Assembly: GCA_964348195.1 (NCBI GenBank) | Contig: CAYGBX010000001.1 | Location: 15,148-79,147 of the forward strand | DNA length: 64,000 bases | DNA from: an uncultured Anaerolineales bacterium | GTDB taxonomy: Bacteria > Chloroflexota > Anaerolineae > UBA7937 > JACPPX01 | Direction of reading: 5' to 3' | Shown here: positions 1 through 27,973 of the stretch, piece by piece | Numbering within the stretch: the first letter of the stretch is position 1 | How the letters are laid out: every line of letters starts with the position of its first letter | Notes under the pieces: generated by a model | The model's database searches: none | Told to the model about the DNA's origin: nothing | The model's input: only the letters and a program-made list of their open reading frames with translations | Made by a program: the position numbers and the translations under genes

Positions 1-1835
1 GCGCCGAGCCAATCCGCAGGCTCCTCGCCCTCGACGGGCGTGGCGTAGGCCGCGCTTGCCGGGTCGAGTCCGGACTCGCCATCCTCCACGACGACCCAGG
101 CCATCGCACCCTCTAGGGTCGGCTCATCGGACCAGCCGCCGGGAGGCGAAGCATCCACGTAGACGCTGGCAGAGTAGGGTTCCGAGGCGTTACCGGCGGC
201 ATCCTGGAACTGCACGAAGACTTGATGCGGCCCTTCTACCTCGAAGACCCACTCTTTGGCCTCGGCGAAGGGCTCCCAATCTGAGAAGGTTTCCCCATCG
301 GAACTGAAGCGCATGGCAGCCACTCCGCTCCCTGCGTCCTCCGCCACGAGGGCGAGTCCCGCCGTGAGGGTGTCGATGAACCCCGAACCGTCGCCCACGG
401 CCAGGCTCCCGGTGGGGCCGGCGTTGTCGGTGACCACCGTGCAGCTCGACTCGGAGGTGCGTCCGCCGGCGCCATGGGCAACCGCCTGTAGTGTGTGCTC
501 GCCTTCTTGGGTCGAGGCAGTGTCCCACTCCCAAGTCAGCTCCTGGCCGCCTGCCTCGGCGACGAGCTCCCCATCCAGATGCAGCTCAAGACGCTCCACA
601 CTGGGGCTGCTGCTGGAAACAGAAACGGTGGCGGTCCCCACCAGCACCTCCCCCTCGCCCGGGCAGGCGAGGTCCAGGCGCGGGTCGTGGCCCAAGAGCT
701 TCTGCCACGCCAAGTCTCGGTAGCTGACCAGCCGGTCGTAGGCCAGCCGACCTGGGCAGGTCGTGTACAGTACGTCGCGGTGTCCAAGGATGTTGGGGAG
801 TTCCACGTCGTGGAACTCAGAAGTGGCAAGGGGGTGGATTCCAAAGCGGTCCGACAGCCAGGAGACGAGCTCGGTGAGAGCCCGCTCCATCTCCACTGGG
901 ACGTCCGCCTGAGAGAAGTCTCCCAGGAGGGCGACTCCGATGCTCCCGTGGTTGAACTGGAGGGCGTGGGAGCCAACGACCCCGTCGCCCCCCTTTCGGC
1001 CCTCGTAGATGTTGCCGGCGAAGTCAATCAGGTAGTTGTAGCCGATGTCGCCCCAACCCTGGGTCACGGTGTGGTAGTAGAAGACCGCGCGGACACCGGC
1101 GGCGGGGTCCTCGGCGAAGTTTCGGGTGGCGGTGTGGTGCAGGATGATCTTCTCGGCCGGCTCCACCTGCGGGACCAGCGTGACCAGGTCCTCGCGGGCC
1201 CCCCAGCCGGCGCGTGAGATGATCTTCGGCCGCGGCACTCCCTCGGCCACGCCCGCCGCCTGGATCGAGGCCTGCGCCTCCTCAATGGTGGGTCCGGGCT
1301 GGGTTGAGATGAGATACAGGGTGACCTCTTCGAGGATCGGCACCTCAGATCCATCGGTGGTGCTGAACAGGGCCCGGTACTGGACGAACCGGGACGGCGC
1401 CACGAAGACGAGGCCTCCTTGGAATCCCTGGCCCGACTCGAGGGTGGCGTCGGCATCGAGGAGGACCTCCGTCCATTCGCTCCAGGACTCCCCATCATCG
1501 CCCGCGCGCACCTCAAAGGAGAGACTGCCCGCCGCGGGGACGACCGCTTCCCACCGGCTCCCCACCGCGTCAAACGTCCGGGAGGCCCGGCGCACGGGCG
1601 AGGTGTACATCCCGAAACCGGCGGTGGGATCCAGACGAATCTCCCCTCCTGCCTCGTCGGACAGCTCCACTCCCTCGGCCTCTCCTTCGGCGAAGTCGCC
1701 CGCAGTCGTCTGGGTCCAGGCCTCAACAGGCGGTCCCACTCGACGCACCGAGAAGAGCTGTTCCGCGTCTGGGATCACGCTCATGAGGACCAATGCCCAG
1801 AGCGTCAAGATGAGTGCGGTCAGTGTCTTCTTCAT
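1..1835 (-). CDS. N-acetylmuramoyl-L-alanine amidase (Amidase_2/PGRP domain) with signal peptide and long C-terminal extension; partial, continues past window start
   Basis: Manual minus-strand translation from ATG (revcomp of 1833-1835), SD GGAGGG 5 nt upstream: MKKTLTALILTLWALVLMSV... then ILHHTATRNF, GWGDIGYNYLIDFAGNIYEGRKGG, HALQFNHGSIGVALLGDF, GHRDVLYTTCPG (classic Amidase_2 zinc-amidase motifs). Open frame runs to position 1, so it is absent from the ORF track (no stop in window). The plus-strand ORFs 495-1217, 1126-1923 and 1419-2069 are antisense artefacts of it. Confidence 0.75.
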   Translation of the reverse strand, partial: MKKTLTALILTLWALVLMSVIPDAEQLFSVRRVGPPVEAWTQTTAGDFAEGEAEGVELSDEAGGEIRLDPTAGFGMYTSPVRRASRTFDAVGSRWEAVVPAAGSLSFEVRAGDDGESWSEWTEVLLDADATLESGQGFQGGLVFVAPSRFVQYRALFSTTDGSEVPILEEVTLYLISTQPGPTIEEAQASIQAAGVAEGVPRPKIISRAGWGAREDLVTLVPQVEPAEKIILHHTATRNFAEDPAAGVRAVFYYHTVTQGWGDIGYNYLIDFAGNIYEGRKGGDGVVGSHALQFNHGSIGVALLGDFSQADVPVEMERALTELVSWLSDRFGIHPLATSEFHDVELPNILGHRDVLYTTCPGRLAYDRLVSYRDLAWQKLLGHDPRLDLACPGEGEVLVGTATVSVSSSSPSVERLELHLDGELVAEAGGQELTWEWDTASTQEGEHTLQAVAHGAGGRTSESSCTVVTDNAGPTGSLAVGDGSGFIDTLTAGLALVAEDAGSGVAAMRFSSDGETFSDWEPFAEAKEWVFEVEGPHQVFVQFQDAAGNASEPYSASVYVDASPPGGWSDEPTLEGAMAWVVVEDGESGLDPASAAYATPVEGEEPADWLG

Positions 1836-1838
1836 CGC

Positions 1839-2300
1839 CTATCCCTCCGCGATGCGGGTGATTTGCGAAGGCCGGGGCCAAGGAAGCCTTTCGGCTATCG
1901 CCTCGGCCTCCCGCGCGATCTGAGCGTCCAGCTCCTGCCAGAGGAGCGGTTCCCAGATCTCGATGCGGTCGCCGATCCCCACCAGGACGGCCTCGTCTGC
2001 TATGCGTGCATAGGAGAGGAGGGTCTCAGGAACGAGAAGCCCGCCCTCCGGATCCAATCTTCCCACTGAGGCCGCGGCGTGGAGATGCCTCGCCAGATCC
2101 CTCGCTCCCCGCCGCTCGAGTTGCAGCGCCCCGCTGAGGATCGCCGCCCAGGCCTCCCAGCCGGTTCGAGGCTGGAGCCACAAGCAGCGGTCAATGCCCT
2201 TGCCCAGGACCCAGCCCGGGGCCAGCTCGGGCCACCAGGCTCCAGGCACCTGGAGGCGTCCCTTCCGGTCCAACGGCACCGAGTGGCTTCCCAGCAACAT
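1839..2300 (-). CDS. mraZ: Transcriptional regulator MraZ
   Basis: 153 aa; two MraZ half-repeats: LDRKGRLQVP and VGIGDRIEIWEP (cf. E. coli NLDSKGRLSVP / VGQFNKFELWD). The start overlaps the stop of the upstream gene (TGATG). Confidence 0.8.
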   Translation of the reverse strand: MLLGSHSVPLDRKGRLQVPGAWWPELAPGWVLGKGIDRCLWLQPRTGWEAWAAILSGALQLERRGARDLARHLHAAASVGRLDPEGGLLVPETLLSYARIADEAVLVGIGDRIEIWEPLLWQELDAQIAREAEAIAERLPWPRPSQITRIAEG

Positions 2301-2875
2301 CAGTTTCCGTCCGTCTCGCCCGGATCGTGTCCGGCCTCGGGCTTCATATCCTGTGTCAGGTAGTGGATACGGATCTCCCGCAGCTCCGACTTCAACAGGT
2401 CCAGGCTGTGCTCGGTCTGGGAGATGAGCGTGCTGGCATCTCTCTGGGCCGATCGGATCAGCTCCTGGGCGCGCGCCTCCCCCTGCTGGACTATGGCCTT
2501 CGACCGAATCTCAGCCATCTCGACCAGTCGGCTGTCCTCCACCAGCGCCTCGGCCTGCCGACTCGCTTCGGAGGCGATGCTCCGGGCCTCGCTCCGCGCT
2601 CCAGCGAGGATCTCGTCCCGTTCCTGAAGGACCTTCCTGGCACGTACCACGGCCCCCGGCAGAGAGCCCCTTAGCCGGCCGATCAGGCGAAGACCGGCTT
2701 GGCGGTTCACCCAGGCTCCACCCATCCGCGGCAGCGTTCGGCCGGCGGCCAGGATTGCCTCCAGCCGATCCAGATACTCGATCGGGTCGGACCCTGACGG
2801 CGGACCGTCGTCCCGCGGCTCGGCGGCCGTGATAGCGGCGATCTTCTCCCTAAGCTCCATCAGCTCTCCTCCCAA
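2300..2875 (-). CDS. Hypothetical coiled-coil protein (E/R/A-rich; ATP-synthase-b / DivIVA-like low-complexity helix)
   Basis: 191-aa ORF with a strong coiled-coil-like composition (ARSEARSIASEASRQAEALVEDSRLVEMAEIRSKAIVQQGEARAQELIRS). Translationally coupled to mraZ. No specific family recognised. Confidence 0.5.
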   Translation of the reverse strand: MGGELMELREKIAAITAAEPRDDGPPSGSDPIEYLDRLEAILAAGRTLPRMGGAWVNRQAGLRLIGRLRGSLPGAVVRARKVLQERDEILAGARSEARSIASEASRQAEALVEDSRLVEMAEIRSKAIVQQGEARAQELIRSAQRDASTLISQTEHSLDLLKSELREIRIHYLTQDMKPEAGHDPGETDGN

Positions 2876-4221
2876 CTCGAGAACTTGCGGCCTTGCCTCA
2901 CCATGCGGTCCAAGATTCGTCGCGTGGACTCCGCGTCGTCCCCTGCGATCCGTTCCACCCGGCAGCCCCGCGCCACGAGCTCCTCCTCTGTGTCGGCGCT
3001 CACGCCTCTCTCATCCCCGATGATCGTGACGTGTCGGGCCAGTCCCGCCTCATCCGGCCGGAAGCCGCAGGCGGGCTGGAAGGTCCGTATGTATTCGGTT
3101 GCCATTCGCCAGTACCAATCTGAGACCCCGAAGTCCCAGGTCGGGAACAGGACGTAGTGCTGGATGGATCCGTTCGACGAAGCGGGCAGGCTCGAAGTCT
3201 CCTGCGGTTGGCGGGCGGCAGGCACAACCTCCGGCAATGGCCTTGGCGCCGGTGGACGCTGGATCGGCTGTGGAGCCGGCTCCGGGTCCGGCGTGCTGGC
3301 AGGTGGGTCGGAGGGAACCTGGGCCTGCTTCGCCAACATGCGGATCGCCGGCACAGGCGTGCCGTCTTCAGCTTCGAGAGGGCCCAGGTTGACGCACAGC
3401 AGGTATCGCGGCAGCGATCCACGTCTCGCCAGGAGCGCCGCCTCCGCCGCTCTCTGCATCGGCCCCCCCGCCGGCGGATAGCTCGCCACCGCCACCACAG
3501 GAAGCGAACGGCCAAGCCGCTCCTGAATGATCTCGTCGTACCATGCGAAGATCCGAAATCCCCGGTGGTCTTCGCTTTCCGCAGGGGTGTGGTACGGGCG
3601 CGCCAGCGGCCAGCGGCTCGGCCCGCCCGCCCCCCAACTCAGGTCCCGGTCGAGAGAAGTCACCGTAGCGACCCCGATCGACGCCAGGAGGGCGGGGTCT
3701 TCCTCCACCAGGATGTCCAGAGCTTCGGCTAGGAACGCTGTGTCCCAGTAGTCGCCTCCCGGCTGCATCGGTGGCAGGAGCGGGATCAGTCCCGCCTCCA
3801 CCGCCCGCGCAAGCGAAGGGCGAAGGATCCCCACAAACCGGCGCACCAGTTCCGGCTCGCTCCACTGAGCCCGCTCCCACGCTCGGGCCAGGTTCGGATA
3901 CCGGTAGAGGTACAGGTACCGACCCCCGGCCTCGGCGTAGGCAGAGAGCGCCGTTCGCAGAGCCTTCTGATCGATTCCGGAGACGGGCGTGCGATCCATC
4001 CCCAGAACAGGCTCGATACCCTGCGTCGACAGCGCCGCCACCAGGTCAAAGGGGATCGAGTGGTCCAGCGAGGCTTCCACTGTCACCCATCCGATCCCGG
4101 CCTCGGCCCAGTCTCGGGTGCGGTCCTCGAACCGACCGTCGCTGCCCGCCAGATCTCCGGCCTTCACAAGGAAGCCGATGCGACTTTCGGTTCTAGGTAG
4201 GGGGAAGGATCTCATCTCCAT
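2860..4221 (-). CDS. Hypothetical protein, two domains joined by a Pro-rich linker
   Basis: 453 aa. N-terminal ~300 aa is a globular domain of unknown function. Linker PSDPPASTPDPEPAPQPIQRPPAPRPLP. C-terminal ~110 aa is HYVLFPTWDFGVSDWYWRMATEYIRTF...TIIGDERGVS...RGCRVERIAGD. The start lies 9 nt after the stop of the caspase-like gene. Confidence 0.55.
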   Translation of the reverse strand: MEMRSFPLPRTESRIGFLVKAGDLAGSDGRFEDRTRDWAEAGIGWVTVEASLDHSIPFDLVAALSTQGIEPVLGMDRTPVSGIDQKALRTALSAYAEAGGRYLYLYRYPNLARAWERAQWSEPELVRRFVGILRPSLARAVEAGLIPLLPPMQPGGDYWDTAFLAEALDILVEEDPALLASIGVATVTSLDRDLSWGAGGPSRWPLARPYHTPAESEDHRGFRIFAWYDEIIQERLGRSLPVVAVASYPPAGGPMQRAAEAALLARRGSLPRYLLCVNLGPLEAEDGTPVPAIRMLAKQAQVPSDPPASTPDPEPAPQPIQRPPAPRPLPEVVPAARQPQETSSLPASSNGSIQHYVLFPTWDFGVSDWYWRMATEYIRTFQPACGFRPDEAGLARHVTIIGDERGVSADTEEELVARGCRVERIAGDDAESTRRILDRMVRQGRKFSSWEES

Positions 4222-4230
4222 CGCTTGCCT

Positions 4231-6534
4231 CTACCTCGACACCACCAGCTTCCCGATCCGACCGTCCCCGTCCGAGGTCAGGACGGCTCGATGGCGCAGG
4301 CTTCTCCTCCGAGGGTCCACTTCCAGCGGAGTGCGATGCTCAGCGCTGGCCACCCAGCGCTCCGTAGGCGGACTGCTGTCAGCGGCCGATCCCGTGCGGA
4401 CTGGGCATATGGGACAATCGCCACAGCCACAGGCCGAAACTTTCTTCACGGACGCCTTCGCGGACGCGAGAGCCGGGACTTGGCCGCTGAGGTACGACTG
4501 CAGGGTCCGCCGGATTGACGTAGGTGCCTCTGCCTCCTCCGACGAACCCCCGTGGCCGCATATCACGGCCGGACACTGCACTGGGTCGCTGTCCCCCATT
4601 CCGCGACGTCGGATCCGGTGCGTTGCAGACAATCCCAGGCTGGGATCTCCGTACAGGACGAACGTGAGGAGAGTCTTCTGGTCCTCCGCATCCAGGTATC
4701 CCTGCTCGGCACCGGCCTGCTCGATCAGGCCCAGCTTGGCCCGACGCAACGCCTCGCCGAGGGCGAAACCTTCCCGCAGACCCAGGAACAGGTTCACGGC
4801 GAGGAGGTCCGCGCCCACCAGTGGCGGGGCCAACGAGCCGTAGGCCATTCCGGTGGATCCGATGAAGCCACGGGCTCCGGCCGCCAGAAACGCCAGCGCC
4901 ACAGAATCCTGGATCCCTCGGTCTGCGATCTCGGCTCCGTAGCATGCCTCGCTGAAGACCACCGCCTCCGTCGGATCGGCCCAACTCAGGTTCAGAGGCG
5001 TCAGCGCGATGGGAAAGACGGGAGCGTCCTCCTCATCGCTCGAGCCGTGTCCGTACCAATAGGGGCTCCCCGCCACCCCGTGCAGGTTGAAGTAGGCGAG
5101 CGCGGGAATCCGATCGTATGCCTCGAGGAACTCCTGGTCCGAGAAGGGCGGGGACACCTCAAGTCCCCGGCCGTCGCCAAGGGCCTGCATCACGGCTGAG
5201 GAGGCATCCCGCCAGACTCCCGCCGAGACCGCAAGCGGCTGGGAGCCGTTTCCAGAGAAGAGCCGGCCCAGCCTCCCGCCGCGGCGTCGGCGCTTCCGGT
5301 GGGCGGTGGCGGTGCGAACGATGAATTCGGTCAGAGCCTCCGAGGAACCCAGGTCGGGGATCCGTCCCACGGCACGATCGGGAAGCAGGTAGTTCCCCGT
5401 CCGCGAAGCGTAGGGAGCGTCGGTGAAGACCTCCTCGTCCCCATCGTCTGAGGGATTGGGGATTCTGAAGAAGGGCACGATCCCGTCGCCACCCACCAGG
5501 AGGAGATAGTCGGCGCGCTGGCCGGTCTCCCCCAGCCGGACCTCCAGGTCTGCCAGCAGCTTGGCAATCGAGGCAGGATCCTCCGGATCGGCCACGGACA
5601 GGCCGAGCTCGCCCAGCGACTGAGGATCGTCCACCAGGACCAGGTGGGCGTCGATGCCAGAGCCTCTACGAGCGGCAGCGGCCAGGGCCGAGAGCCCCTC
5701 GGTGATCGCCATCCGCCCTTCCTCGCCGAACGCCGCCCCGAGCCGCGCGCGGCTCGACACGATCGCCAGGCTCGAGCTCAGCTCCCCGCCGCCAGCCCCG
5801 TTGCCCAAGGGGGAGATTTCGGGCTCCGCGATCTCGGGCAGGATCGGCAGATCTGGATGCTCCTCCACTGGCACTGAGGCCGGTTCGGGCGAGGGAACGC
5901 GCTCCGCCGGTTCAGGCTCCACTGCCCCGGCCGCACCATCACGGTCCCCACCCTGGACGGCCGGCTCGACCTCTTCCGCAGGACTCACGGTGGGAGCGGT
6001 CGCCAGGTACTCGGGGTACAGCCCCTCCGCAACGAAGAGCGAACGGGCGACCTCCATGCTGGGATCCAGCTCCCGAGCCGCGTGGAACCGCTTCGCTCCC
6101 TCGATCCAATCACCGGCTCGCAACTTGAGGTCTCCCAGCATCAGTTGGACCCGAACCAGGTTGGGGTGTGAGGCAGCGAGCGAGGCCAACACCGGCTCCA
6201 CCTCGGTCCCCCGCCCCTCCCGCCAGGCGACCTCGGCCTGGGCCAGTCCCTCGGGCACCGACATCGAGCCCCCGGATCCCTCCACGAGCCTCTGGAGCGC
6301 CTCCACGGCCTTGGGGTTCGTCGGATCCGTCGCCACAACGGCCTGATAGTGTCTGGTTGCCTCCGCCCCGCGGCCGGACTCCTCCAGGATCCGCCCCAGG
6401 GCCAAGCGAGCCGCCTGATGCCGGGGAAACCGACGTATCAGCGCCACGAGAAGTGGCTCCGCGGCTTCCGGCTGTCCCTGCTCGTGCCGCCGCAGGGCCC
6501 GCTCCACGATGCCTCCCGTCTCCACGGCGCGCAT
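4231..6534 (-). CDS. TPR-repeat protein with C-terminal caspase-like (clan CD, CHAT-type) cysteine peptidase domain and Cys-rich tail
   Basis: 767 aa. N-terminal TPRs (ALIRRFPRHQAARLALGRILEESGRGAEATRHYQAVVATDPTNPKAVEAL...). Protease core LLLVGGDGIVPF...YFNLHGVAGSPYWYGHG (catalytic His) then ~45 aa on VVFSEACYGAEI (caspase QACRG-like Cys pentapeptide). C-terminal CPAVICGHGG...CGCGDCPICP zinc-ribbon-like. The start ATG directly abuts the stop of the STAND gene (TAGATG). Confidence 0.8.
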   Translation of the reverse strand: MRAVETGGIVERALRRHEQGQPEAAEPLLVALIRRFPRHQAARLALGRILEESGRGAEATRHYQAVVATDPTNPKAVEALQRLVEGSGGSMSVPEGLAQAEVAWREGRGTEVEPVLASLAASHPNLVRVQLMLGDLKLRAGDWIEGAKRFHAARELDPSMEVARSLFVAEGLYPEYLATAPTVSPAEEVEPAVQGGDRDGAAGAVEPEPAERVPSPEPASVPVEEHPDLPILPEIAEPEISPLGNGAGGGELSSSLAIVSSRARLGAAFGEEGRMAITEGLSALAAAARRGSGIDAHLVLVDDPQSLGELGLSVADPEDPASIAKLLADLEVRLGETGQRADYLLLVGGDGIVPFFRIPNPSDDGDEEVFTDAPYASRTGNYLLPDRAVGRIPDLGSSEALTEFIVRTATAHRKRRRRGGRLGRLFSGNGSQPLAVSAGVWRDASSAVMQALGDGRGLEVSPPFSDQEFLEAYDRIPALAYFNLHGVAGSPYWYGHGSSDEEDAPVFPIALTPLNLSWADPTEAVVFSEACYGAEIADRGIQDSVALAFLAAGARGFIGSTGMAYGSLAPPLVGADLLAVNLFLGLREGFALGEALRRAKLGLIEQAGAEQGYLDAEDQKTLLTFVLYGDPSLGLSATHRIRRRGMGDSDPVQCPAVICGHGGSSEEAEAPTSIRRTLQSYLSGQVPALASAKASVKKVSACGCGDCPICPVRTGSAADSSPPTERWVASAEHRTPLEVDPRRRSLRHRAVLTSDGDGRIGKLVVSR

Positions 6535-9500
6535 CTAGCTTCCCCCGCCGTGGACCCAGGCCAGCGCAGTCGTGGCGGCCAGCTGCTTGAAGGCATTTGC
6601 GTTCTTGGGATCGAGCCGCACTGCTTCGCGGAACATCTCGGCGGATTCGGAGTACTGCTTGAGCCGCTTGTAGAGGAGGCCAGCCCGGAAGTGATGGTCG
6701 GCCTCGCCGGGCTCGGTCTGACAGGCCAGCAGGAACTCTCGGAGGGCCCGGTCGTAGTTGCCTTGCTCCTCATGGGTCCTGCCCAGCTCGCTATGCGCCT
6801 GACCGCTGGCAGGGTCGAGCTCCGCCATCTTCCGGAAGTGAGCGACCGCCTTGTCCGTGTGGCCCAGCCTCCGGCACAGTGCGCCCACCTCGCTGTGGTA
6901 GGCCTTCTCCTCGGGAGCGGCACGCAGCGCCTTGTGGTAGGCCTCCAAGGCATCGTCGAAGCGATCCTGATCCAGATAGGTGCGCGCTCTCGAGATGTAG
7001 GCCGGCGCGTACTGGGGATCGCGCGAGGTGGCCTCGTCCAGGGCCTCAAGTGCGGCGTGGTAGTCGCCCTGTCGATGAAGGACCTCGGCTACCCGATGGG
7101 GATACGCCGGATCCTGGGGCTCCAGGTCGCTCGCTCGCTGGTAGTGCGCCAGGGCCTGTTCCAGGTCGCCCCGCTTCTCTTGGAGGTGGCCTAGGTGGGC
7201 GTACGAGGCCGCCTTGGCCCCGCCGAGTGAGAGCGCCTCCTCGAAGCATGCGATCGCTTCCTCGAACCGCCCCATCCCTTCCAGGGCGACGCCGAGCCCG
7301 AGCCACAGCGTCGGGTCCTGAGGCTGCGTCTCCAAAGCTCGGCGGTAGGCATCCGCCGAATCGGAATTCCGTCCCACCTCTTGGTAGGCCGCACCGAGGG
7401 CGGATCGGGCCCGTAGGTCGTTCGGGTCGAGGCGCACTGCCTCCTCCAGGTGCTCGACCGCCTTGTCCCAGCGCCGCATGTGAGACAGCGCGCTGGCAGC
7501 GGCCCTGTGAAACTCGGCTGCTCGGGGAGCCAGCTCGACCGCCTTCCGGTACTGCTCGAAGGCGGACTGATGCCGCCCGGCCCGCTCGTACAGACCGCCG
7601 AGCACCGCCCGCCATCGTGCGACGCCTGGACCGGCCGCCACAGCGCGCTCCATCGCCTCCATCGCTTCTTCGTGGTCCCCGGCGGACTCCAGCGTACCGG
7701 ACAGGGCGTGCAGGTAGCGGCCGTCGTGGTCGGATCGATCCACGGCAGCACGAAAGGCGGACAACGCGCGATCATGCTCTCCCAGAGCCTCGTGGATCCG
7801 GCCGAGCTGGTAGTGGGTCTCGGCCTCGTCTGGCGCCAGGCTGTGAGCGGCCTCCAGCTCGCGCCGGGCGTCCTCGTACCGCCCCAGCTGTCGATACACC
7901 GAGCCAAGGGCGCGCCGTCGCTCTGGTGACCCAGGCTCCAGATCCACGGACTTCTGGCAGAGCCTTTCTGCTTTGTCTCCGTCTCCCTGGGCAGCGTTCA
8001 GAAGACCCAGCTCAGAGTAGGCCTCCGCCCAATTCGGCTTGAGGTCCAATGCCGCCTGGAGCGAACCCGCGGCCTTGGCGTACCAGTGGTCAGATGCGCC
8101 ATTCTCTGACGCCTTCCCAAGGGCTCGCTCCACGGCGCCCAACCGCAAGACATAGGTGGGATCGTGCGGCGCGAGCCGACTGGCCTCGTCGTAGAGACGC
8201 TGGGCATCCTCTAGTCGACCCGCTCCCTCGTAGGCCTGGCCGAGCCGGAAGGTCGCTCGCGGATCGGTCCCCTCCTCCGTAGCGAGGGGCTCGAGAACAT
8301 GGACCGCCTCCAGGGCGCGTCCGCTCGCCAGGAGGGCCCCACCCAATGCCTCGCGGATCTGTGCATCGTGGGGGATCAGATCCAGCGCCCGCTGGTAGAA
8401 GCCCAAGGCCTGCTCAACCTGGCCCGCCTTCTCGCGCGCCCGACCCAGAAGGTAGAGAGCCTCCGGGTCCGCCGAGTCCATCTCCAGGGCACGTTCGAGG
8501 GCCACGGTCGCTTCCTCCGCGTGCTCCCGCTCCAAGAGGAGCGCGCCCAGATCGCGGTGGTGGATGGCGTCCTTGCCGTCGCAAGCCACGGCCTCCTCAA
8601 ATTGGGTGCGTGCGGCGTCCCAGCGACCCGCCTCCCGGTAGAGTTGGCCCAGCCGATGGTGCAGCGGGGCGCTGCCGGGCAGGTTGGCGATCGCGCGCTC
8701 CAGGACCGTGGCGGCCTGGGCTTCTCGACCTAGCTGGCGCTCCAGGGCAGAGAGAGCCAGATGCGGTTCGGCAGATCGCGGCTGAAGTGAGGCCGCCTTT
8801 CGATAGCTGGACCGTGCTTCCTCCAGCTTTCCCATCGCCTCCTGCAACCTGCCGAGACCCAGCAGAGCCTCCACAGGCTCACTGTCAAGGGCCACAGCCG
8901 TGGCTAGTGCTTCCTCAGCTTCCTCTCGGCGGCCCAAAGCGCTGAGAAGGTTTCCGCGGGCTAGGTGGACCGTGGACTCCTCGGGAGCGATGCGCTCGGC
9001 CTTGGCCACCTCGTCGAGAGCCGCGGCAAGGTCGCCCCGCTCCTCCAGGATCCGCGCCAGGTTCAGGTGAGCCTGTGGATCGTCCGAGTCCGTGCTGCGG
9101 GCTCGCTCCAACGAGGCCTCCGCCTCGTCCACGCGACCCATCTGGTCCAGAACTCGGCTCATTCGACCCAGGTGACTGGGGTCCAGGAAGAGCGACTCCC
9201 CTGCCCCCTGGTAGGCCTCCAAGGCCTCGGGGTGCCACCCGTTGCTCTCGAACCCCTCTCCCAGGGTCTCTCGGAGTGCGGGATCGTGCGGATTCAGCGC
9301 CACCGCCTCCTCAAGTGCGGCCACGGCTTCTTCCCCGCGGCCGAGATCCAGAAGAGTCCGTCCCATCCACTGGAGATAGCGGGGCTCATCCGGCGCCTGC
9401 GCGATTGCCCGTCGGCCGGCGGAAAGCGCCTCTTCCATGCGGTCGGCCGCCTGGTACAGGTTGGCGAGTTCGAACTGGAGCTCCGCGCCGCCCTGCTTCC

Positions 9501-12500
9501 GCCCCACCGCCTCCTCCAACGCAGAAAGCGCTTCGTCGAGATCTCCCTGGGCGCGACACACTCGGGCATACCCGCGATGGTGCCTCGTGTCAGCGGGATC
9601 CAGGGACATCGCTTGCCGGTACCGCTCGCGGGCCTGCTCTGTCTCTCCCTGCTCCTCGAAGGCCTGGCCCAGCAGATGTTGGGCCTCGGCGTCCGAGGGA
9701 TCGGTGGCGAGTGCGCATTCCAATGCCTCCCTGGCCTCGTCCGTTTGACCGGCCCGGAGCAGAACGCGTCCCTTGCGCCGGAGATGTCCCGGCTCCTCCG
9801 GCTCCACGCGGATCGCCTCCTCGTACTCGCGCAGCGACTCCTCCAACCGACCCTCTGCCTCCAGGATCTCTCCGATCCGGGCGTGGATGGCGGCCGATCC
9901 ACCATTCCCCGCCCCGAGAGCCCTGCGCAGGGCTTCCAGGGCCTTTGTCGCATCGCCCATCTTTTGGAGCAGGGATCCCGCGGCCAGAGGAAGCTCGCCG
10001 TCGTCCGGCGCCAGCTCTATGGCACGCTGATACGCCTCCAGGGCCTCGCCGTACTCCTCTCGGCCCTCGGCGACCGCGCCCCAGAGTCGCAGAGTGAGGG
10101 CGTCGGTGGGGTCGAGCGTCAGTGTCCGCTCCAACGCGGCGCGAGCTTCGTTGAGCCGTCCCATCTGCAGGCTGACCGCTGCCAACCCCCGCTGATGAGC
10201 CGGATCCTCAGGAGCGAGACGAATGGCGCGCCGGTAGCTCCCTAGCGCCGCGTCCAGTCTTCCATCCGCCTTCTGGATCTCGCCCAGAAGTGCGTGTCCC
10301 GTCGCCAGGTCCTTCCCCAGGGAGATTGCTTCGCGAGCCGCGGCCTCCGCCTCCTCCAGACGCGACATTCGCAAGAGCAGCCTTGACAGAGCCAGCCGGT
10401 GCACAGCAGCCTCTGGATCCAGCTCGATCGCGTGACGCAGGGCCCTCAAAGCGCGCGAGCCCTCCCCCTGAGAGGCGTAGGCGATTCCCAGCTCGCGCTG
10501 GATCTCCCCCCGCTCCGGAGCGAGCCGAGCGGCTTCCTCAAGCTCTGCCGTGGCCGCGTCTCCGCGACCGAGCTCCTGAAGTCCGGCCGCCAGATGGGCG
10601 CGTATCTCCGCATTGCCCGGGTCCATGTCCCGGGCCTTCAGATAGGCTTCGACCGCCTCCTCAAGGTCGCCTCTCGCCGCGTGAATCCTCGCGTGCTCGT
10701 GGTGGACGGATGCCAGGCCTGGGCCCAGATCCAGGGCACTGGAGATGGTGGACAGCGCTTCGTCCAGCCGCTTCAGGCCACGCAGCGCCTCCGCTTCCAG
10801 CACCAGGAAGCCTGGCTCCCCGGGAGCCATCTCGCGGCCGCGACGACACCAGCCCAACGCCTCGTCAAAGCGATTGAGCACGAGATGGACCCGGGCCAGT
10901 CCCGCAAGCGGTGCCGGTCCCAAAGGATCCTGCGCGTGCGCCTGCTCCAGGGCGGCCAACGCCTCGCTGCCGCGGCCAGCCACGATCAGCGCCATTCCCA
11001 AGTGGAGATGCCCGTGGGCGTTCTCCGGCTCCAGGCGGCTCGCCTCTCGATAGGACTCTACAGCCTGGGAGGATCGGCCTTGGGCGGCGAAAACCGCTCC
11101 CTGGACGCGGTGGGCCTCAGCGAATTGCGGGGCTCCCTCCACGGCGCGCTCGGCGAACCGAGCCGCCTCATCGAGCTCCCCCTGCTCAGACAAGACCCGG
11201 GCCAAGCCAACTTGATACAGGGGCTCGTCGGGATCCTGGCCGGCGGCCTGCTCATAGGCGCCCTTCGCCTCCTCCAGCCAACCCTGGCCTTCGTAGGCCC
11301 GAGCCAGTTCGTTGAGCACCGAAGGGTCGGAGTCGTCTTGAGATCGGGCCCTCTCGAGGAACTCCCGTGCCTCTTCGAACCGGCCCATCTCGTTGAGCAC
11401 CCGACCCACACTCGCAAGGTAACGAGCTTCCTCTGCCTGCAGGGCCGCGGCGCGGCGGAAGGCCTGGAGCGCCTCGGCCATTCGCCCTTCCGCCTCGTAG
11501 GCAAGCCCAAGCTGATGGTGGGTGTCCACGTAGGCTGTGCCAGCCGCGGCCACGGCTCCTTCCAGCTCCTCCACGGCCTGGGCGTGCTGATCCATCTGCT
11601 GCAGAACCAGCCCGCGGTTGCGCCGCCGGAAGAGCTCTTCGGTGCGAACCCCGGATGGATCCTTCTCCCAGGAGCCCAGATCGAGGGACCCTTCCTCCAG
11701 GCTTCTCTCCAGTAGAATCGCGGCCGCCCGATGGCAACCCTCCTGCTTGAGAAGCCTCCCCAGCCGATAGGCGGTGGCCCCATCCACGGCGGGGCCGGAG
11801 GCGGAGAGAAGGTCGGTGACCTTGCCCACCTGGCCCTCGGGCGGCTCGTTGTCGGCAATGCTGCGGGCAGCGAGCCGGAGGGAGGCCTCGTCTCCCTTGA
11901 CGAGCAGGGCTTGAAGGTAGGCCAGAGGATCCGGAGCGAAGGCGTAGCCTTGGACGACGGCGCCCTCGGCCATGGGTTCCCTGCTGAGGGCGGCGACTCG
12001 CTCCCAGCCACCGCTTCTTCCCAGGGCCTGTCCCGCGAAGTGCTCTAGCACGAGCGGATCCAGAAACGCCACCGCCCCTCGCCCGCGCCGGACCAGAAGG
12101 CCAGTCGCCAGAATCCGCTCCAGGAGAGCACCAGCACCTCGGCCGTCCGCGGAAACCTCTTCGAAGCGCTCGAGCCAGGCCTCCCGTGGCGCGTGGTTGC
12201 GGCCCTCCGCGAGCAGGCCAACGGCAGCCGTCTCCAGCGCCGCGTCAGCCCCCTCTGGCATCTCCTGCACCAATCGCTCGACAGCGGTGGAGATCACGTC
12301 GCCCGGCCTCCACCAGCGGCGAACAGCGTCCGATTCCCGCGCCAGCTCGACCAGCGCCGACAGGAAGAGGGGGGAATGGACCAAGTTCCAGAGGTCTGGC
12401 CGCCGGCGCAGCCGCTCCTCAACCTCCTGTGCCAGAGGCCGCTCCAGCCGCTGCGCAAGGTAGCGGCGAACGTCGTCGTCGGAGAGGGGCAGGATCTCCC

Positions 12501-13071
12501 AGGTGGAGATCTCGCCCAGCCAGCGCCGATATATAGAGAAGTCCGCGCTTCGGCAGGCTACCACCGCACGCTGATCTCGGAGGGTGGTACCGACCAACCG
12601 TTCGATCTCCTCCAGAGCATAGTGGCTGGTGATGCGATCCAGGTTGTCGAGCAGCAGGGTCACGTAGCCCCGTCCGAGGAGGGAGCTGAGAGCCGAACGC
12701 TCCATGTCGGGATCGCCCAGAGAGGCGGCGATTCGCTCGCGGATGCCATCCCCTTCCTCCATGGGCGCCAGGTCCACCAGCAGAGGCACGGGACGATCCC
12801 GCTCTCCCGGCATGGCGTCCTCCGCCAAGACGGTCACCAAGTGTTCCAAGAAGACCGTCTTGCCTGCCCCCGGTCCGCCGAGCACCACGGCTCGGCCCGC
12901 ATCCAGGATCGCCCGGGTGGCGTCCGGGGCGGGACTGTCCGCGAGGGGTCGCGTCAGCCGAGGTGGGATGTAGGGGCCGCCAGCACCTCCGGAGCGCTCC
13001 TGCACCCCGGCCAGATGCCGGCGCAGGACCGCCAGGCCCGAAGGGGCGGCCCCTTCATTGCGTTCCGCCAT
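6535..13071 (-). CDS. STAND-class NTPase (NACHT/AAA-like) fused to a ~1800-aa TPR array
   Basis: 2178 aa. Walker A VVLGGPGAGKTVFLEHL, Walker B VTLLLDNLD, sensor-1-like VVACRSADF, then winged-helix-like region. From about residue 400 to the C-terminus there are uninterrupted TPRs (dozens of A-x-x-x-Y/F...A-L-x-L-x-P units). SD GGGGAGG 4 nt upstream of the ATG. No N-terminal effector domain. Confidence 0.85.
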   Translation of the reverse strand: MAERNEGAAPSGLAVLRRHLAGVQERSGGAGGPYIPPRLTRPLADSPAPDATRAILDAGRAVVLGGPGAGKTVFLEHLVTVLAEDAMPGERDRPVPLLVDLAPMEEGDGIRERIAASLGDPDMERSALSSLLGRGYVTLLLDNLDRITSHYALEEIERLVGTTLRDQRAVVACRSADFSIYRRWLGEISTWEILPLSDDDVRRYLAQRLERPLAQEVEERLRRRPDLWNLVHSPLFLSALVELARESDAVRRWWRPGDVISTAVERLVQEMPEGADAALETAAVGLLAEGRNHAPREAWLERFEEVSADGRGAGALLERILATGLLVRRGRGAVAFLDPLVLEHFAGQALGRSGGWERVAALSREPMAEGAVVQGYAFAPDPLAYLQALLVKGDEASLRLAARSIADNEPPEGQVGKVTDLLSASGPAVDGATAYRLGRLLKQEGCHRAAAILLERSLEEGSLDLGSWEKDPSGVRTEELFRRRNRGLVLQQMDQHAQAVEELEGAVAAAGTAYVDTHHQLGLAYEAEGRMAEALQAFRRAAALQAEEARYLASVGRVLNEMGRFEEAREFLERARSQDDSDPSVLNELARAYEGQGWLEEAKGAYEQAAGQDPDEPLYQVGLARVLSEQGELDEAARFAERAVEGAPQFAEAHRVQGAVFAAQGRSSQAVESYREASRLEPENAHGHLHLGMALIVAGRGSEALAALEQAHAQDPLGPAPLAGLARVHLVLNRFDEALGWCRRGREMAPGEPGFLVLEAEALRGLKRLDEALSTISSALDLGPGLASVHHEHARIHAARGDLEEAVEAYLKARDMDPGNAEIRAHLAAGLQELGRGDAATAELEEAARLAPERGEIQRELGIAYASQGEGSRALRALRHAIELDPEAAVHRLALSRLLLRMSRLEEAEAAAREAISLGKDLATGHALLGEIQKADGRLDAALGSYRRAIRLAPEDPAHQRGLAAVSLQMGRLNEARAALERTLTLDPTDALTLRLWGAVAEGREEYGEALEAYQRAIELAPDDGELPLAAGSLLQKMGDATKALEALRRALGAGNGGSAAIHARIGEILEAEGRLEESLREYEEAIRVEPEEPGHLRRKGRVLLRAGQTDEAREALECALATDPSDAEAQHLLGQAFEEQGETEQARERYRQAMSLDPADTRHHRGYARVCRAQGDLDEALSALEEAVGRKQGGAELQFELANLYQAADRMEEALSAGRRAIAQAPDEPRYLQWMGRTLLDLGRGEEAVAALEEAVALNPHDPALRETLGEGFESNGWHPEALEAYQGAGESLFLDPSHLGRMSRVLDQMGRVDEAEASLERARSTDSDDPQAHLNLARILEERGDLAAALDEVAKAERIAPEESTVHLARGNLLSALGRREEAEEALATAVALDSEPVEALLGLGRLQEAMGKLEEARSSYRKAASLQPRSAEPHLALSALERQLGREAQAATVLERAIANLPGSAPLHHRLGQLYREAGRWDAARTQFEEAVACDGKDAIHHRDLGALLLEREHAEEATVALERALEMDSADPEALYLLGRAREKAGQVEQALGFYQRALDLIPHDAQIREALGGALLASGRALEAVHVLEPLATEEGTDPRATFRLGQAYEGAGRLEDAQRLYDEASRLAPHDPTYVLRLGAVERALGKASENGASDHWYAKAAGSLQAALDLKPNWAEAYSELGLLNAAQGDGDKAERLCQKSVDLEPGSPERRRALGSVYRQLGRYEDARRELEAAHSLAPDEAETHYQLGRIHEALGEHDRALSAFRAAVDRSDHDGRYLHALSGTLESAGDHEEAMEAMERAVAAGPGVARWRAVLGGLYERAGRHQSAFEQYRKAVELAPRAAEFHRAAASALSHMRRWDKAVEHLEEAVRLDPNDLRARSALGAAYQEVGRNSDSADAYRRALETQPQDPTLWLGLGVALEGMGRFEEAIACFEEALSLGGAKAASYAHLGHLQEKRGDLEQALAHYQRASDLEPQDPAYPHRVAEVLHRQGDYHAALEALDEATSRDPQYAPAYISRARTYLDQDRFDDALEAYHKALRAAPEEKAYHSEVGALCRRLGHTDKAVAHFRKMAELDPASGQAHSELGRTHEEQGNYDRALREFLLACQTEPGEADHHFRAGLLYKRLKQYSESAEMFREAVRLDPKNANAFKQLAATTALAWVHGGGS

Positions 13072-13081
13072 GGGCCCTCCC

Positions 13082-13426
13082 CTAGAGCCCCGTGGTGAGC
13101 CAGAAGGCGACTATGCTGATGGTGACACCCGCGACCGTGAGGAAGGCACCGATACCGGCAGCGGTACGGATCAGCCGGTTGATGGCTTCCACCAGGTTGG
13201 AAGCGGAGTCGATGATTGGCGCCACGGCATCCTGCGTGACGGCCCGGCCACTGATCTTTATGGACTGAGCCGAGAGGTGCTTCATGGCGCTGTGGTACTC
13301 CTTGGACAGGATGATCCACAGACCGGAGACGGTGCAGACCACCCCGATCAGGAACAGGATCACCGCCATCCCGACCTCGAGGTCAGCGGCTGGCATTGGG
13401 ACCTCCTTTCGCGATCCGCACGGCAC
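13082..13426 (-). CDS. Small membrane protein (2 predicted TM helices), unknown function
   Basis: 114-aa ORF. Hydrophobic MAVILFLIGVVCTVSGLWIIL and GIGAFLTVAGVTISIVAFWLTTGL flank a ~60-aa soluble segment. The ORF-track start overlaps the receiver gene by 44 nt. The true start is probably internal (Met at 13396 or GTG/ATG near 13370). Confidence 0.5.
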   Translation of the reverse strand: MPCGSRKEVPMPAADLEVGMAVILFLIGVVCTVSGLWIILSKEYHSAMKHLSAQSIKISGRAVTQDAVAPIIDSASNLVEAINRLIRTAAGIGAFLTVAGVTISIVAFWLTTGL

Positions 13427-13811
13427 GGCGGACCAGCTGCTTCATCTCCTCCATCTCGAAGGGCTTGCTGACATAGGCAGAGACTCCGACGCGTTCCGCC
13501 TCCGCCTCCACATCGCTGCATCCATAGGCGGTCATGAGAATGGCCTGGGTTCTGGTCTGGAGCCCTCGGGCGGCGCGCAGCAATTGGATCCCGCTCAGGC
13601 CAGGCATCCTCAGGTCGGCGATGATCACGTCCGGCTGCCTCTCAGCTACCGCCTCCAGCGCGTCCTCGCCTGAATGGCGAACCTCAACCTCGTACCCCGG
13701 CTCCTCCTCCAGCGCGCTGCGCAGGAAGTGGGCCAGGGTTCGCTCGTCCTCAGCGATGAGGATTCGGGAGGTTCGTGCGTCTACCCTTTTCTGCGTGATC
13801 GCGGTCGCCAC
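13383..13811 (-). CDS. Single-domain response regulator (CheY-like receiver)
   Basis: 142 aa. RILIAEDE, phospho-acceptor IIADLRMPG, LMTAYG, SKPF. GTG start with GAGG SD 8 nt upstream. First gene downstream of the sigma-54 promoters. Confidence 0.8.
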   Translation of the reverse strand: MATAITQKRVDARTSRILIAEDERTLAHFLRSALEEEPGYEVEVRHSGEDALEAVAERQPDVIIADLRMPGLSGIQLLRAARGLQTRTQAILMTAYGCSDVEAEAERVGVSAYVSKPFEMEEMKQLVRRAVRIAKGGPNASR

Positions 13812-13836
13812 TCAAGTTCCTCTACATGAGATACTC

Positions 13837-13852
13837 GCAAGATCCGTGCCAG
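13837..13852 (-). promoter_or_regulatory. Sigma-54 (RpoN) -24/-12 promoter, proximal copy (P2), transcribing toward 13811
   Basis: Minus-strand reading of 13837-13852 = CTGGCACGGATCTTGC. TGGCACG-N4-TTGC matches consensus spacing and bases exactly. -12 C at ~13837, predicted TSS ~13825, 14 nt before the GTG start. Confidence 0.6.
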
Positions 13853-13896
13853 CCCCCTGCCGACCGAGATGGGGCGGGCTCCACGATTGGGGAGCA

Positions 13897-13912
13897 GCAA
13901 GATCCGTGCCTG
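13897..13912 (-). promoter_or_regulatory. Sigma-54 -24/-12 promoter, distal copy (P1)
   Basis: Minus-strand reading = CAGGCACGGATCTTGCT. Identical 14-nt core GGCACGGATCTTGC exactly 60 bp upstream of P2, -12 TTGCT. Confidence 0.55.
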
Positions 13913-14000
13913 ACAGGCCCGATTCAGGCGTGGAGAGAGCGCCCGACTGCTCCTCGGCGGCTCCCGGATCGACTACCGCGGTTCGGTGAGACGGGGTGAC

Positions 14001-14035
14001 ACTGGGGGGACTTCCCCAACTGGGGGAAATCCCCC
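14001..14035. promoter_or_regulatory. Candidate enhancer (UAS) for the adjacent sigma-54 activator: two adjacent imperfect dyads
   Basis: ACTGGGGGGACTTCCCC (14001-14017) and ACTGGGGGAAATCCCCC (14019-14035). Both are TGGGGG-N2-3-CCCCCA dyads, 18 bp centre to centre, ~100-130 bp upstream of the sigma-54 -24 elements and ~150 bp from the end of the bEBP gene. Confidence 0.35.
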
Positions 14036-14187
14036 ATCAGAAGAGGGATCGGCGCGCAACAGGAGCTGTGTGCCAGCGCCGGCTGGACGGACGAGGGCAG
14101 CGAGCCAGGACGCGTTCAGAGAGCTGTGCTAGCCGAAGGTGGAGTACGTGATCCGGGGCCCGCGGTGGATGAGGACGCGAGGAGAGG

Positions 14188-25334: not shown

Positions 25335-25355
25335 GGCTAGGTCCGTCGCTCCAAG

Positions 25356-26975: not shown

Positions 26976-27973
26976 TGTCCTGGCTCCCAGCAATCGGGCT
27001 CGATGTCCGAGACGGTGTTGTGGGTTAGCTGCGTCAACCCGCTGCCGTCGATGTTCACGATGAAGATCTCGTAGTCTCCGTCGCGGTCCGAGGAGAACAC
27101 AAACCGGTCGCTTGCGCTGCACCAGCAGGGGTCGCTGTCCTCACCAGGGCTCACGATCAGAGGGCGCTGATTCGAGCCGTCTGCATCCATGATGAAGATA
27201 TCACCGCCCCCCTCTTCGCCGGAGAGACGATGCGAGTGAAAAAGGATCTTGCTCCCGTCGCGGGAGAAGGAGGGGTAGGCATCGAACCCGGGGCTGTGAG
27301 TAAGCCGGCGCACATTGCTGCCGTCGGGCTCCATCACGTAGATCTCCCAGTCCCCGTCGCGATTGGAGTAGAAGGCGATGGGACCGAGCGGTGACCAAGA
27401 CGGGAAGGCGTCGAGCGCCGGGTGGTTGGTGAGGTTCACCTGATTGGCTCCATCGGCGTCCACCCGGAAGATCTCCCAATCCTCGCCAACCCGGTAGAAG
27501 GCCAATTGGCTCCCGTCTGGCGACCAACTGGGCACATCCTCAAAGCCGGGGGTGTGCGTGAGATTGACCGTCTCCCCCGTCTCTGGATCCAGGGTTATCA
27601 CCTCCGACTCGCCTGCCACCACGGACTGGAAAGCCAGCTTGGTACCATCGGGGGACCACACCGGATAGCCCTCGAAGCCCGGCGACTCGGTGATCTGGAC
27701 CAAATCGGAGCCATCTTCATTCATCACATATATGTCGTGGACGCCGGAACGGTCCGATCCAAACGCGATTCGGGCGAGAGGCCGGGGAGTAGGAGTAGCC
27801 ACGACGGTAGGCGATGGTGAGGGCGTCAACGTCGGTGTTGGCGTAGGCGTGGTCGTCCGGGTGGGAGTCGGCTGCGGAACCAGCGTTTCCTCCGGCAGGG
27901 GGGTGCAGCCCACCACAAGCCACAAGGCAACAGCCCCCAGGGTCGGCCCAATGTTCACGATGTGAGTTCTCAC
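26972..27973 (-). CDS. Lipoprotein with PD40 (TolB-like) beta-propeller repeats
   Basis: 333 aa. LVVGCTP lipobox. Thr/Pro linker. Repeats YPVWSPDGTKLAFQS / DVPSWSPDGSQLAFYR / AFPSWSPLGPIAFYS / AYPSFSRDGSKILFHS. Confidence 0.7.
   Translation of the reverse strand: MRTHIVNIGPTLGAVALWLVVGCTPLPEETLVPQPTPTRTTTPTPTPTLTPSPSPTVVATPTPRPLARIAFGSDRSGVHDIYVMNEDGSDLVQITESPGFEGYPVWSPDGTKLAFQSVVAGESEVITLDPETGETVNLTHTPGFEDVPSWSPDGSQLAFYRVGEDWEIFRVDADGANQVNLTNHPALDAFPSWSPLGPIAFYSNRDGDWEIYVMEPDGSNVRRLTHSPGFDAYPSFSRDGSKILFHSHRLSGEEGGGDIFIMDADGSNQRPLIVSPGEDSDPCWCSASDRFVFSSDRDGDYEIFIVNIDGSGLTQLTHNTVSDIEPDCWEPGH

Follow-up and report, generated by a model that had tools for sequence, protein, structure and literature searches.

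The DNA analyzed here is a 64,000-nt stretch (hereafter, the window) from an uncultured Anaerolineales bacterium of the Chloroflexota, comprising positions 15,148 to 79,147 of contig CAYGBX010000001.1 (assembly GCA_964348195.1). Window positions 1–13912 contain eight tightly packed genes, all on the minus strand and with all junctions between −14 and +10 nt. The first gene (13383–13811) codes for a receiver-only response regulator (RR) of 142 aa (Pfam Response_reg, E 2.7e-25). It is followed, with a junction of −14 nt, by the gene for a 104-aa protein with two hydrophobic, putative transmembrane (TM) segments at residues 1–19 and 75–93 (2-TM protein; 13082–13396) and, after 10 nt, by that for a giant protein of 2178 aa (6535–13071) with a NACHT domain (~12445–12888) and an array of tetratricopeptide repeats (TPR; ~6562–11664). 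The next gene (4231–6534) abuts the giant gene directly (0 nt, TAGATG) and codes for a 767-aa TPR-Peptidase_C25 protein, with a catalytic domain at ~4633–5658 and a C-terminal domain, here called s77-like, at ~4234–4557. A gap of 9 nt separates it from the gene for a two-domain protein of 453 aa (2860–4221), which consists of a barrel resembling glycoside hydrolase (GH) clan A, a Pro-rich linker and a small alpha/beta C-terminal domain. Then come the genes for a coiled-coil protein of 186 aa counted from its ATG (2300–2860; junction −1 nt, TGATG), for MraZ (1839–2300; junction −1 nt; 153 aa, Pfam MraZ E 3e-16) and for an amidase (1–1835; junction +3 nt; ATG at 1835), whose 5′ part provides 611 aa of an estimated ~850–900 and contains Amidase_2 (E 1e-17) and Big_7 domains. 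These coordinates and junctions agree with the gene order given in a preliminary description of this DNA, which had the operon ending in the amidase gene. Since the amidase open reading frame (ORF) crosses the window start, the operon does not stop at this gene, and in relatives the next gene is ftsZ (see below). The sole sizeable non-coding gap around the operon is 13812–14187. Neither a sigma-70-like promoter nor a convincing internal terminator was found in 1–14300, no Rfam RNA families were found in 1–22000, and no recently amplified TPR units were found in the giant gene by DNA tandem-repeat analysis. We infer that the operon genes are co-transcribed.

Directly upstream of the operon and on the same strand there are four regulatory genes with junctions of 6–8 nt: rpoN, coding for sigma-54 (20512–21990; Sigma54_AID, Sigma54_CBD and Sigma54_DBD, E 1.8e-9 to 1.4e-40; 8-nt gap to the next gene), a gene for a sensor histidine kinase (HK) of 958 aa with SBP_bac_3, PAS, GAF, PAS, HisKA and HATPase domains (17627–20503), a gene for a hybrid receiver-GAF-PAS HK of 685 aa (15568–17625), and a gene for an NtrC-type activator or bacterial enhancer-binding protein (EBP; 14188–15561) with Response_reg, Sigma54_activat (E 4.8e-71) and HTH_8 domains. 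Sigma factor, sensors, activator, promoters and target operon form one contiguous ~22-kb single-strand block. Two −24/−12 elements, 60 bp apart and with a common 14-nt core (GGCACGGATCTTGC), were located upstream of the RR gene on the minus strand: a distal one, AGGCACGGATCTTGCT (13896–13911), and a proximal one, TGGCACGGATCTTGCG (13836–13851), lying ~25 nt 5′ of the RR start codon. Each has one mismatch to the consensus and both are retained in a relative (locus L005), which bears out the two sigma-54 promoters described before. Over the whole 64-kb window the 2-mismatch sigma-54 pattern occurred at chance level (22 observed versus 18.9 expected), and the background for sites with at most one mismatch was 0.032 per kb per strand. 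Further upstream, Tandem Repeats Finder detected a candidate upstream activating sequence on the minus strand (14001–14036) that is formed by two tandem 18-bp units, TGGGGGATTTCCCCCAGT and TGGGGAAGTCCCCCCAGT. A similar GGAATTTCCCC(A) double repeat is present 130–230 bp 5′ of the promoter in L005, L003 and the L001-type loci, and this recurrence makes a candidate activator-binding site plausible; we infer that the EBP binds the tandem 18-bp repeat. Based on the presence of the promoters, a cognate EBP and rpoN, the operon is predicted to be sigma-54-dependent.

A one-genome-per-species scan identified 139 relatives of the protease, from which 80 loci were kept, nearly all of them from Anaerolineales or other Anaerolineae and including the cultured Ornatilinea apprima and one complete chromosome. 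The window proteins and further references were mapped onto these loci, and ~90 related loci were compared in all. A core trio of genes, coding for the 2-TM protein, the giant TPR protein and the TPR-C25 protease, was found together in at least 55 of the 80 loci, and the trio recurs, amid housekeeping genes, in more than 80 Anaerolineae loci. The lack of conservation that the preliminary description had named as a refutation was thus not observed. Four gene orders were distinguished around the trio. Type A, to which the window belongs, runs RR, TM, giant, C25, ~400–450-aa protein, ~170–200-aa protein, MraZ, amidase of 842–899 aa, FtsZ, a 72–78-aa ORF, LysM proteins and a SpoIID fusion. Type B consists of HK, EBP and trio, followed by unrelated housekeeping genes. 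In type C ("ftsZ-first") the order is 453-aa-like gene, ftsZ, small ORF, a gene for a 258-aa TM protein, and trio. Type D (L094, reached from FtsZ) shows HK, HK, trio, MraZ, FtsZ and a 100-aa ORF, and one further locus, L063, shows HK, EBP, trio, a 458-aa gene and ftsZ. At least 22 of the 80 loci found through the protease have a same-strand ftsZ gene within 10 kb, and these cover three gene orders. When look-ups were made from five FtsZ homologs, three led to trio-linked loci and two to canonical murD…ftsQ-ftsA-ftsZ clusters. Two relatives of the window with ~84% DNA identity (L089 and L093) continue with amidase, FtsZ, a 72-aa and a 43-aa protein, LysM and SpoIID, and the ftsZ continuation was also present in relatives at 38–46% protein identity (L001, L003, L008–L011, L013 and L090). 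Since both ~84%-identical relatives share this continuation, the window operon almost certainly runs into a predicted ftsZ gene beyond the window edge.

The promoter motif was surveyed in 67 non-redundant loci as TGGCAC-N5-TTGCA. With 0–1 mismatches, it was found 60–100 bp 5′ of the gene that opens the trio (or of RR) in ~38 of them, and most of the others had a 2-mismatch version at the equivalent position. In type C loci the 0–1-mismatch motif precedes ftsZ by 50–210 bp (8/8 loci with sufficient upstream sequence), and it was absent before the canonical dcw-type (division and cell wall) ftsZ genes checked. In several type C loci the motif is not repeated before the TM gene, so that ftsZ and the genes up to that of the protease may share one transcript. 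Locus L094 lacks the motif, so that the predicted sigma-54 control is common and not universal. Orthologous EBPs are encoded directly 5′ of the trio in ~25 loci. The enhancer-dependent sigma-54 gating that had been proposed for this operon is supported by promoter motifs conserved in relatives and by EBP and rpoN genes next door. Locus L063 has three near-perfect motifs, one (3593) before the TM gene, one (9508) before the C25 gene and one (12203) before the 458-aa gene that precedes ftsZ, which suggests that the cluster can be divided into several sigma-54 transcription units. Activators encoded directly upstream of the trio in Ornatilinea-type loci (L022, 1766–2950; L027, 1861–3027; and similar loci) are only ~390 aa long and, judged by their length and ends, apparently stop after the AAA+ lid, without HTH_8; the window activator has 457 aa and includes HTH_8.

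The 767-aa protein matches Peptidase_C25 (PF01364) with E 1.2e-13 and 51.5–54.3 bits (cut-off 23) over profile positions 24–373 of 374, and the Pfam family was also matched by 15 of 17 protease orthologs. Residues H485 (YFNLHG; 5080–5082) and C531 (SEACYGA; 4942–4944) are invariant in alignments of 10 and 17 orthologs; we take them to be the catalytic dyad from knowledge of clan CD, rather than from a structure. The protease looks active, judging from its sequence. It had been described as a TPR-caspase-like protease of the CHAT type. The caspase-type class agrees with the C25 match, C25 and CHAT families both belonging to clan CD, but CHAT itself was rejected: the window protein has no PF12770 match and only 5 of the 17 orthologs match it weakly (best E 1.9e-4). 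The remaining domain calls (Response_reg, NACHT, TPR, MraZ and Amidase_2) were confirmed. Profile searches against PDB returned only TPR proteins with the full-length alignment and no match with the catalytic-domain alignment. Close homologs of the protease are few and all come from Anaerolineae or Chloroflexota metagenome-assembled genomes; the family as a whole comprises 1521 clusters at 50% identity (E up to 1e-3) and carries no functional annotation. One distant homolog with 27% identity, annotated as "C25 family cysteine peptidase", is encoded on a Bradyrhizobium septentrionale plasmid (L095; NZ_CP088289.1, 121902–123425); it has no TPRs, and its gene adjoins those for a serine protease and an AbiEi/AbiEii toxin-antitoxin pair.

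Every linked ftsZ gene has at its stop codon an overlapping or abutting small ORF (s77), which is translationally coupled to it and whose product is homologous to the last ~100 residues of the protease (hhalign of s77 versus the protease C-terminal domain: 97.9% probability, E 5e-13). A hidden Markov model (HMM) built from the small ORFs alone matched all such ORFs and C-termini of C25 proteases and nothing else in all loci and the window, and it found no s77-type ORF after dcw-type ftsZ genes. The C-terminus of the window protease is more divergent and falls below the threshold of this small-ORF HMM, and it still aligns within the family. The s77-type domain is located at 18345–18578 in L001, 1595–1864 in L042, 6970–7188 in L089 and 11221–11523 in L094, as well as at ~4234–4557 in the window. 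It is ~75 aa long, ends in …VRVTAD..GKvLKvsvSR, and has no Pfam or NCBIfam match.

In the giant protein, the NACHT domain (PF05729; E 5e-9, 36.6 bits, cut-off 26.7) spans residues 62–209, with GPGAGKT as Walker A and LLLDNLD, read from the sequence, as Walker B. Among orthologous giants, the Walker A motif or P-loop was found only in the window clade and in one Herpetosiphonaceae locus (L088). Giants from Ornatilinea, the complete chromosome CP070785.1 and ~50 further loci have only TPRs after an N-terminal helical domain, and this helical domain aligns to the region following the NTPase core in the NACHT giants (86% probability, E 5e-6). Since the NTPase is missing in most giants, their core function would be independent of NACHT. 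A GEKRAGKS string near residue 130 of some non-NACHT giants fits the pattern GxxxxGK[ST], and it was treated as a chance match inside the helical domain. Giant length is constant across the class (1700–2200 aa), and in at least 55 loci the gene is directly preceded by a 2-TM homolog. The RR is confined to the window-type gene order.

The other operon products were also analyzed. The barrel of the 453-aa protein has a GH clan-A-like (beta/alpha)8 fold, but a reading of its sequence revealed no acid/base Glu of the NEP type after strand 4 (family consensus D-R-P-N; window R-Y-P-N), whereas the paralogous barrel fused to SpoIID has F-N-E-P-N. The coiled-coil protein is weakly similar to DivIVA/Wag31/Scy proteins (NCBIfam DivIVA_Wag31 E 2.8e-6, far below the cut-off; Pfam DivIVA E 0.02, and E 0.0026 for an ortholog). 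MraZ is a regulator typical of dcw clusters, and that of the window is divergent (Pfam, 59.5 bits versus a cut-off of 23; TIGR00242, 77 bits, under the 98-bit cut-off): its first DxxxR motif is intact (LDRKGR) and its second reads LDPEGG, with Arg replaced by Gly. The amidase has an N-terminal signal or anchor segment, followed by Amidase_2 and Ig-like Big_7 domains; its homologs have 842–899 aa. In the SpoIID protein encoded in the operon (~1050 aa; L003, 17744–20920; L001, 20651–22487), the SpoIID domain is fused between a GH-A-like barrel and a second barrel. Neither a signal peptide nor a TM segment was predicted for this fusion, unusual as that is for an enzyme acting on peptidoglycan. 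In type C loci (for example L042, 2122–2898), the 258-aa protein with an N-terminal TM anchor, whose gene separates the small ORF from the TM gene, has no Pfam match and appears faintly LytR-CpsA-Psr-like (LCP) by eye; a true LCP gene follows SpoIID in L090. Core-chromosome neighbors further upstream of the operon include genes for DNA ligase, Era, SdhA, RtcB, RibF, TruB, IF-2 and NusA, and the locus is part of the core chromosome and no island. Upstream of rpoN, and on the same strand as the operon, region 22066–31938 contains envelope- or peptidoglycan-type genes coding for a PD40 propeller (600 aa), a beta-lactamase-like protein (498 aa), an M23 peptidase (588 aa), a second PD40 protein (333 aa), an M14 carboxypeptidase (290 aa), an FG-GAP protein with PGA_cap (733 aa) and a GATase (302 aa); this gene run may share a wall-remodeling neighborhood with the operon.

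The predicted operon was compared with known systems. As in a dcw cluster, mraZ is located 5′ of ftsZ, on one strand and in one tight unit with genes for wall-active enzymes, and reduced mraZ-mraW-ftsA-ftsZ clusters are known in Dehalococcoidia and Mollicutes (PMC10608941). Unlike a dcw cluster, the operon has no rsmH, ftsL, ftsI, mur, ftsW, ftsQ or ftsA, only the amidase gene lies between mraZ and ftsZ, five non-dcw genes (including those for the 2178-aa TPR protein and the cysteine protease) precede mraZ, and the promoter is of the sigma-54-dependent type in place of the usual housekeeping Pmra. With gingipains (RgpB, Kgp) and the PorU sortase of the type IX secretion system (T9SS), members of the C25 family, the protease has in common a match to the full-length catalytic profile and the clan-CD motifs, a hydrophobic strand followed by His-Gly (YFNLHG) and then Ala-Cys (SEACYGA). 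It differs from them in being cytoplasmic, without signal peptide, propeptide, Ig-like domains or T9SS C-terminal domain, in having N-terminal TPRs, and in giving no PDB sequence match. An analogy, and only that, might be drawn with separase (C50, clan CD), a giant helical-repeat scaffold plus a caspase-fold protease acting at a cell-cycle step, although scaffold and protease are separate polypeptides in the operon. Regulation resembles NtrC-type sigma-54 control as in glnAp2 or the developmental EBPs of Myxococcus, with an HK, a receiver-AAA+-HTH (helix-turn-helix) activator, tandem repeats and a GG-N10-GC promoter; here, however, the target would be a division and wall operon including ftsZ, for which no report was found in the searchable literature. 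In open-access papers and bioRxiv no description was found of the cluster, of a sigma-54-driven ftsZ or of the s77 domain, in line with the earlier remark that the gene order was not that of a described system.

On balance, we favor the interpretation that these genes form a lineage-specific, sigma-54-dependent operon for cell division and septal wall formation in Anaerolineae (Chloroflexota), which would be a remodeled dcw cluster, although our preference for it is a modest one. We favor it because the trio remains linked to ftsZ or mraZ through repeated rearrangement, because of the s77 domain, the DivIVA-like protein, the septum-type hydrolases and the common promoter type, and because of the core-genome setting. 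Under this interpretation, the two kinases, one of them with a periplasmic solute-binding sensor domain, would phosphorylate the NtrC-type activator, which from the GGAATTTCCCC repeats would drive sigma-54 RNA polymerase at the tandem −24/−12 promoters. One long transcript would result, coding for RR, the 2-TM protein, the giant, the C25 protease, the GH-like protein, the DivIVA-like coiled coil, MraZ and the amidase and, by synteny, also for FtsZ, the 72–78-aa s77 protein, LysM proteins and the SpoIID fusion. In the cytoplasm, the giant TPR scaffold, anchored by the 2-TM protein, would keep the clan-CD cysteine protease at the membrane, and the s77-type C-terminal domain of the protease would bring it to the FtsZ machinery, where cleavage of a division component would regulate septation; in the window clade, the NACHT NTPase would add a nucleotide-dependent switch. 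Outside the membrane, septal peptidoglycan would be split or remodeled by the amidase, LysM and SpoIID proteins. The trio is most likely a membrane-anchored scaffold with a putatively active cysteine protease acting on the FtsZ machinery; formation of the complex, FtsZ-directed proteolysis and the role in wall splitting are proposed on the basis of gene association.

Several observations weigh against the division operon. The ftsZ gene itself is located outside the window and its linkage is by synteny only, every link to division being one of gene association. About one third of the trio loci have neither ftsZ nor an EBP gene within 10 kb. The AlphaFold2 model of the 767-aa protease, computed from a 10-sequence alignment, had a pLDDT (predicted local distance difference test score) of 55.6 and was poor in the catalytic region. 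A STAND NTPase paired with a clan-CD protease is typical of conflict systems of multicellular bacteria (PMC7159879). Distant C25 homologs on rhizobial megaplasmids adjoin AbiE toxin-antitoxin genes, so that the wider family is not confined to division contexts. The canonical ftsQ-ftsA-ftsZ cluster is retained in Longilinea (L091) and in L092, and since other Anaerolineae have such a cluster, the linked FtsZ could be a second, specialized copy. Finally, in none of the 20 linked FtsZ proteins from types A and C is the second Asp of the T7 loop retained, and some have neither Asp (a Bacillus subtilis FtsZ served only to locate the T7 column, the contrast itself being between retrieved sequences). 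The variants read NxDFA[H/N] (including NLDFAH and NVDFAH/N), NLDL[A/N]H (including NLDLNH) and NLNLMH, whereas dcw-linked Anaerolineae copies and that of L094 have NLDFAD. The altered genes include those at 17245–18360 in L001, 404–1582 in L042, 5750–6970 in L089 and 10001–11206 in L090, plus 16 in other loci. In Escherichia coli FtsZ, replacement by Ala of D212, the equivalent of the lost Asp, lowers GTPase activity to 7% (PMC8142252). The change may mark a slow-hydrolyzing FtsZ paralog, and it fits a specialized filament better than a housekeeping ring.

The explanation to which these FtsZ data point is that a second FtsZ runs a specialized septation (fragmentation or dispersal of filaments, formation of resting cells or another developmental process) and not housekeeping division: the canonical ftsA-ftsZ genes would also be kept, and a signal would turn on the T7-altered FtsZ, s77, the scaffold, the protease and the wall hydrolases. 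Besides the T7 alteration, type A and C linked FtsZ proteins group apart from dcw-linked copies in a neighbor-joining tree, canonical dcw clusters occur within the class, and control of the operon is enhancer-dependent and signal-gated. SpoIID and SpoIIP are the engulfment hydrolases of endospore formers, and the pairing of amidase and SpoIID recalls them. However, the linked FtsZ of L094 has a canonical T7 loop and its gene follows mraZ immediately, an arrangement like that of a minimal dcw cluster, the linked proteins keep the C-terminal DLD[IV]PAF[IL]RRR peptide for anchor binding, and that of one relative passes the FtsZ equivalog model (TIGR00065, 356 bits, cut-off 295). We regard specialized septation as possible but rather unlikely.

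The preliminary description had interpreted the genes as an apoptosome-like module for self-destruction, abortive infection or developmental lysis, ending in a cell-wall amidase. In a regulated cell death system of this kind, the NACHT/TPR sensor would activate the caspase-like protease and the wall hydrolases would lyse the cell, perhaps breaking filaments at sacrificial cells. It is true that one sigma-54-gated operon encodes a STAND NTPase, an amidase and a clan-CD protease whose dyad is intact, that the organisms are filamentous, and that pairings of STAND NTPases with caspase-like proteases are enriched in multicellular bacteria, whose conflict and apoptosis-like systems were described by Kaur, Burroughs, Iyer and Aravind (PMC7159879, PMC8195603). 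The likeness to these systems and to the eukaryotic apoptosome lies in a NACHT-TPR fusion whose gene adjoins that for a clan-CD His/Cys protease, the bacterium being filamentous. In contrast to those systems, the NTPase is dispensable here, most orthologous giants having no NACHT, the protease is of the C25 type with its own TPR and s77-type domains, and there are no recognizable death-fold, effector-associated or adaptor domains. The gene set is vertically inherited among housekeeping genes of the core chromosome, and it is ftsZ-linked and includes mraZ and a DivIVA-like gene. The place of the amidase gene, with mraZ before it and ftsZ after it, is one expected of an enzyme that splits the septum, and not the final position of an executioner. 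The continuation into ftsZ in every close relative, the four ftsZ/mraZ-linked orders and the NACHT-less orthologs thus disfavor the apoptosome-like module, and we consider cell death improbable. Defense and suicide are together disfavored because PADLOC anti-phage models matched the window proteins only through generic TPR and receiver hits, because nothing around the locus points to a phage or an island (no match was found in phage records), and because the architecture is constant and NACHT dispensable. Anti-phage abortive infection of the NLR/Avs type, with the TPR array as sensor of a phage protein and the protease as effector, is very improbable: the weak match of the NACHT domain to the antiphage NACHT protein EruA (NCBIfam, 21.9 bits, cut-off 1000) and the AbiE genes beside rhizobial C25 homologs speak for it, but the syntenic chromosomal position across the class and the constant giant length are unlike sporadic, island-borne defense genes, and the cluster is coupled to ftsZ.

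How Chloroflexota cells divide has hardly been studied, and live imaging was first reported in 2025 (bioRxiv 10.1101/2025.08.19.671072). If the division operon interpretation is correct, a whole class of abundant filamentous bacteria would express an ftsZ from an enhancer-dependent sigma-54 promoter, and would co-express it with a giant TPR scaffold and with a caspase-fold protease having one domain in common with a small, FtsZ-coupled protein. To specialists in cell division such a dcw-like cluster, with apparently novel accessory machinery and regulation and in mostly uncultured organisms, would be surprising. It would also mean that "STAND plus caspase-like protease" neighborhoods are not invariably conflict or death systems, and it would give a context to a large protease family (~1500 clusters at 50% identity) that is wholly uncharacterized. 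The operon offers testable candidates for the placement, timing or resolution of septa in multicellular filaments. A more speculative proposal, which we hold with little confidence, is that filamentous Anaerolineae regulate cytokinesis or filament breakage by proteolysis, with a membrane-anchored giant TPR scaffold and, in a separase-like arrangement, a caspase-fold (clan CD) protease that would dock on a specialized, slow-hydrolyzing FtsZ through the s77-shared domain, all of it (ftsZ included) under a two-component/NtrC/sigma-54 cascade. If this were true, these bacteria would have a cell-cycle or multicellularity switch assembled from apoptosis-type parts.

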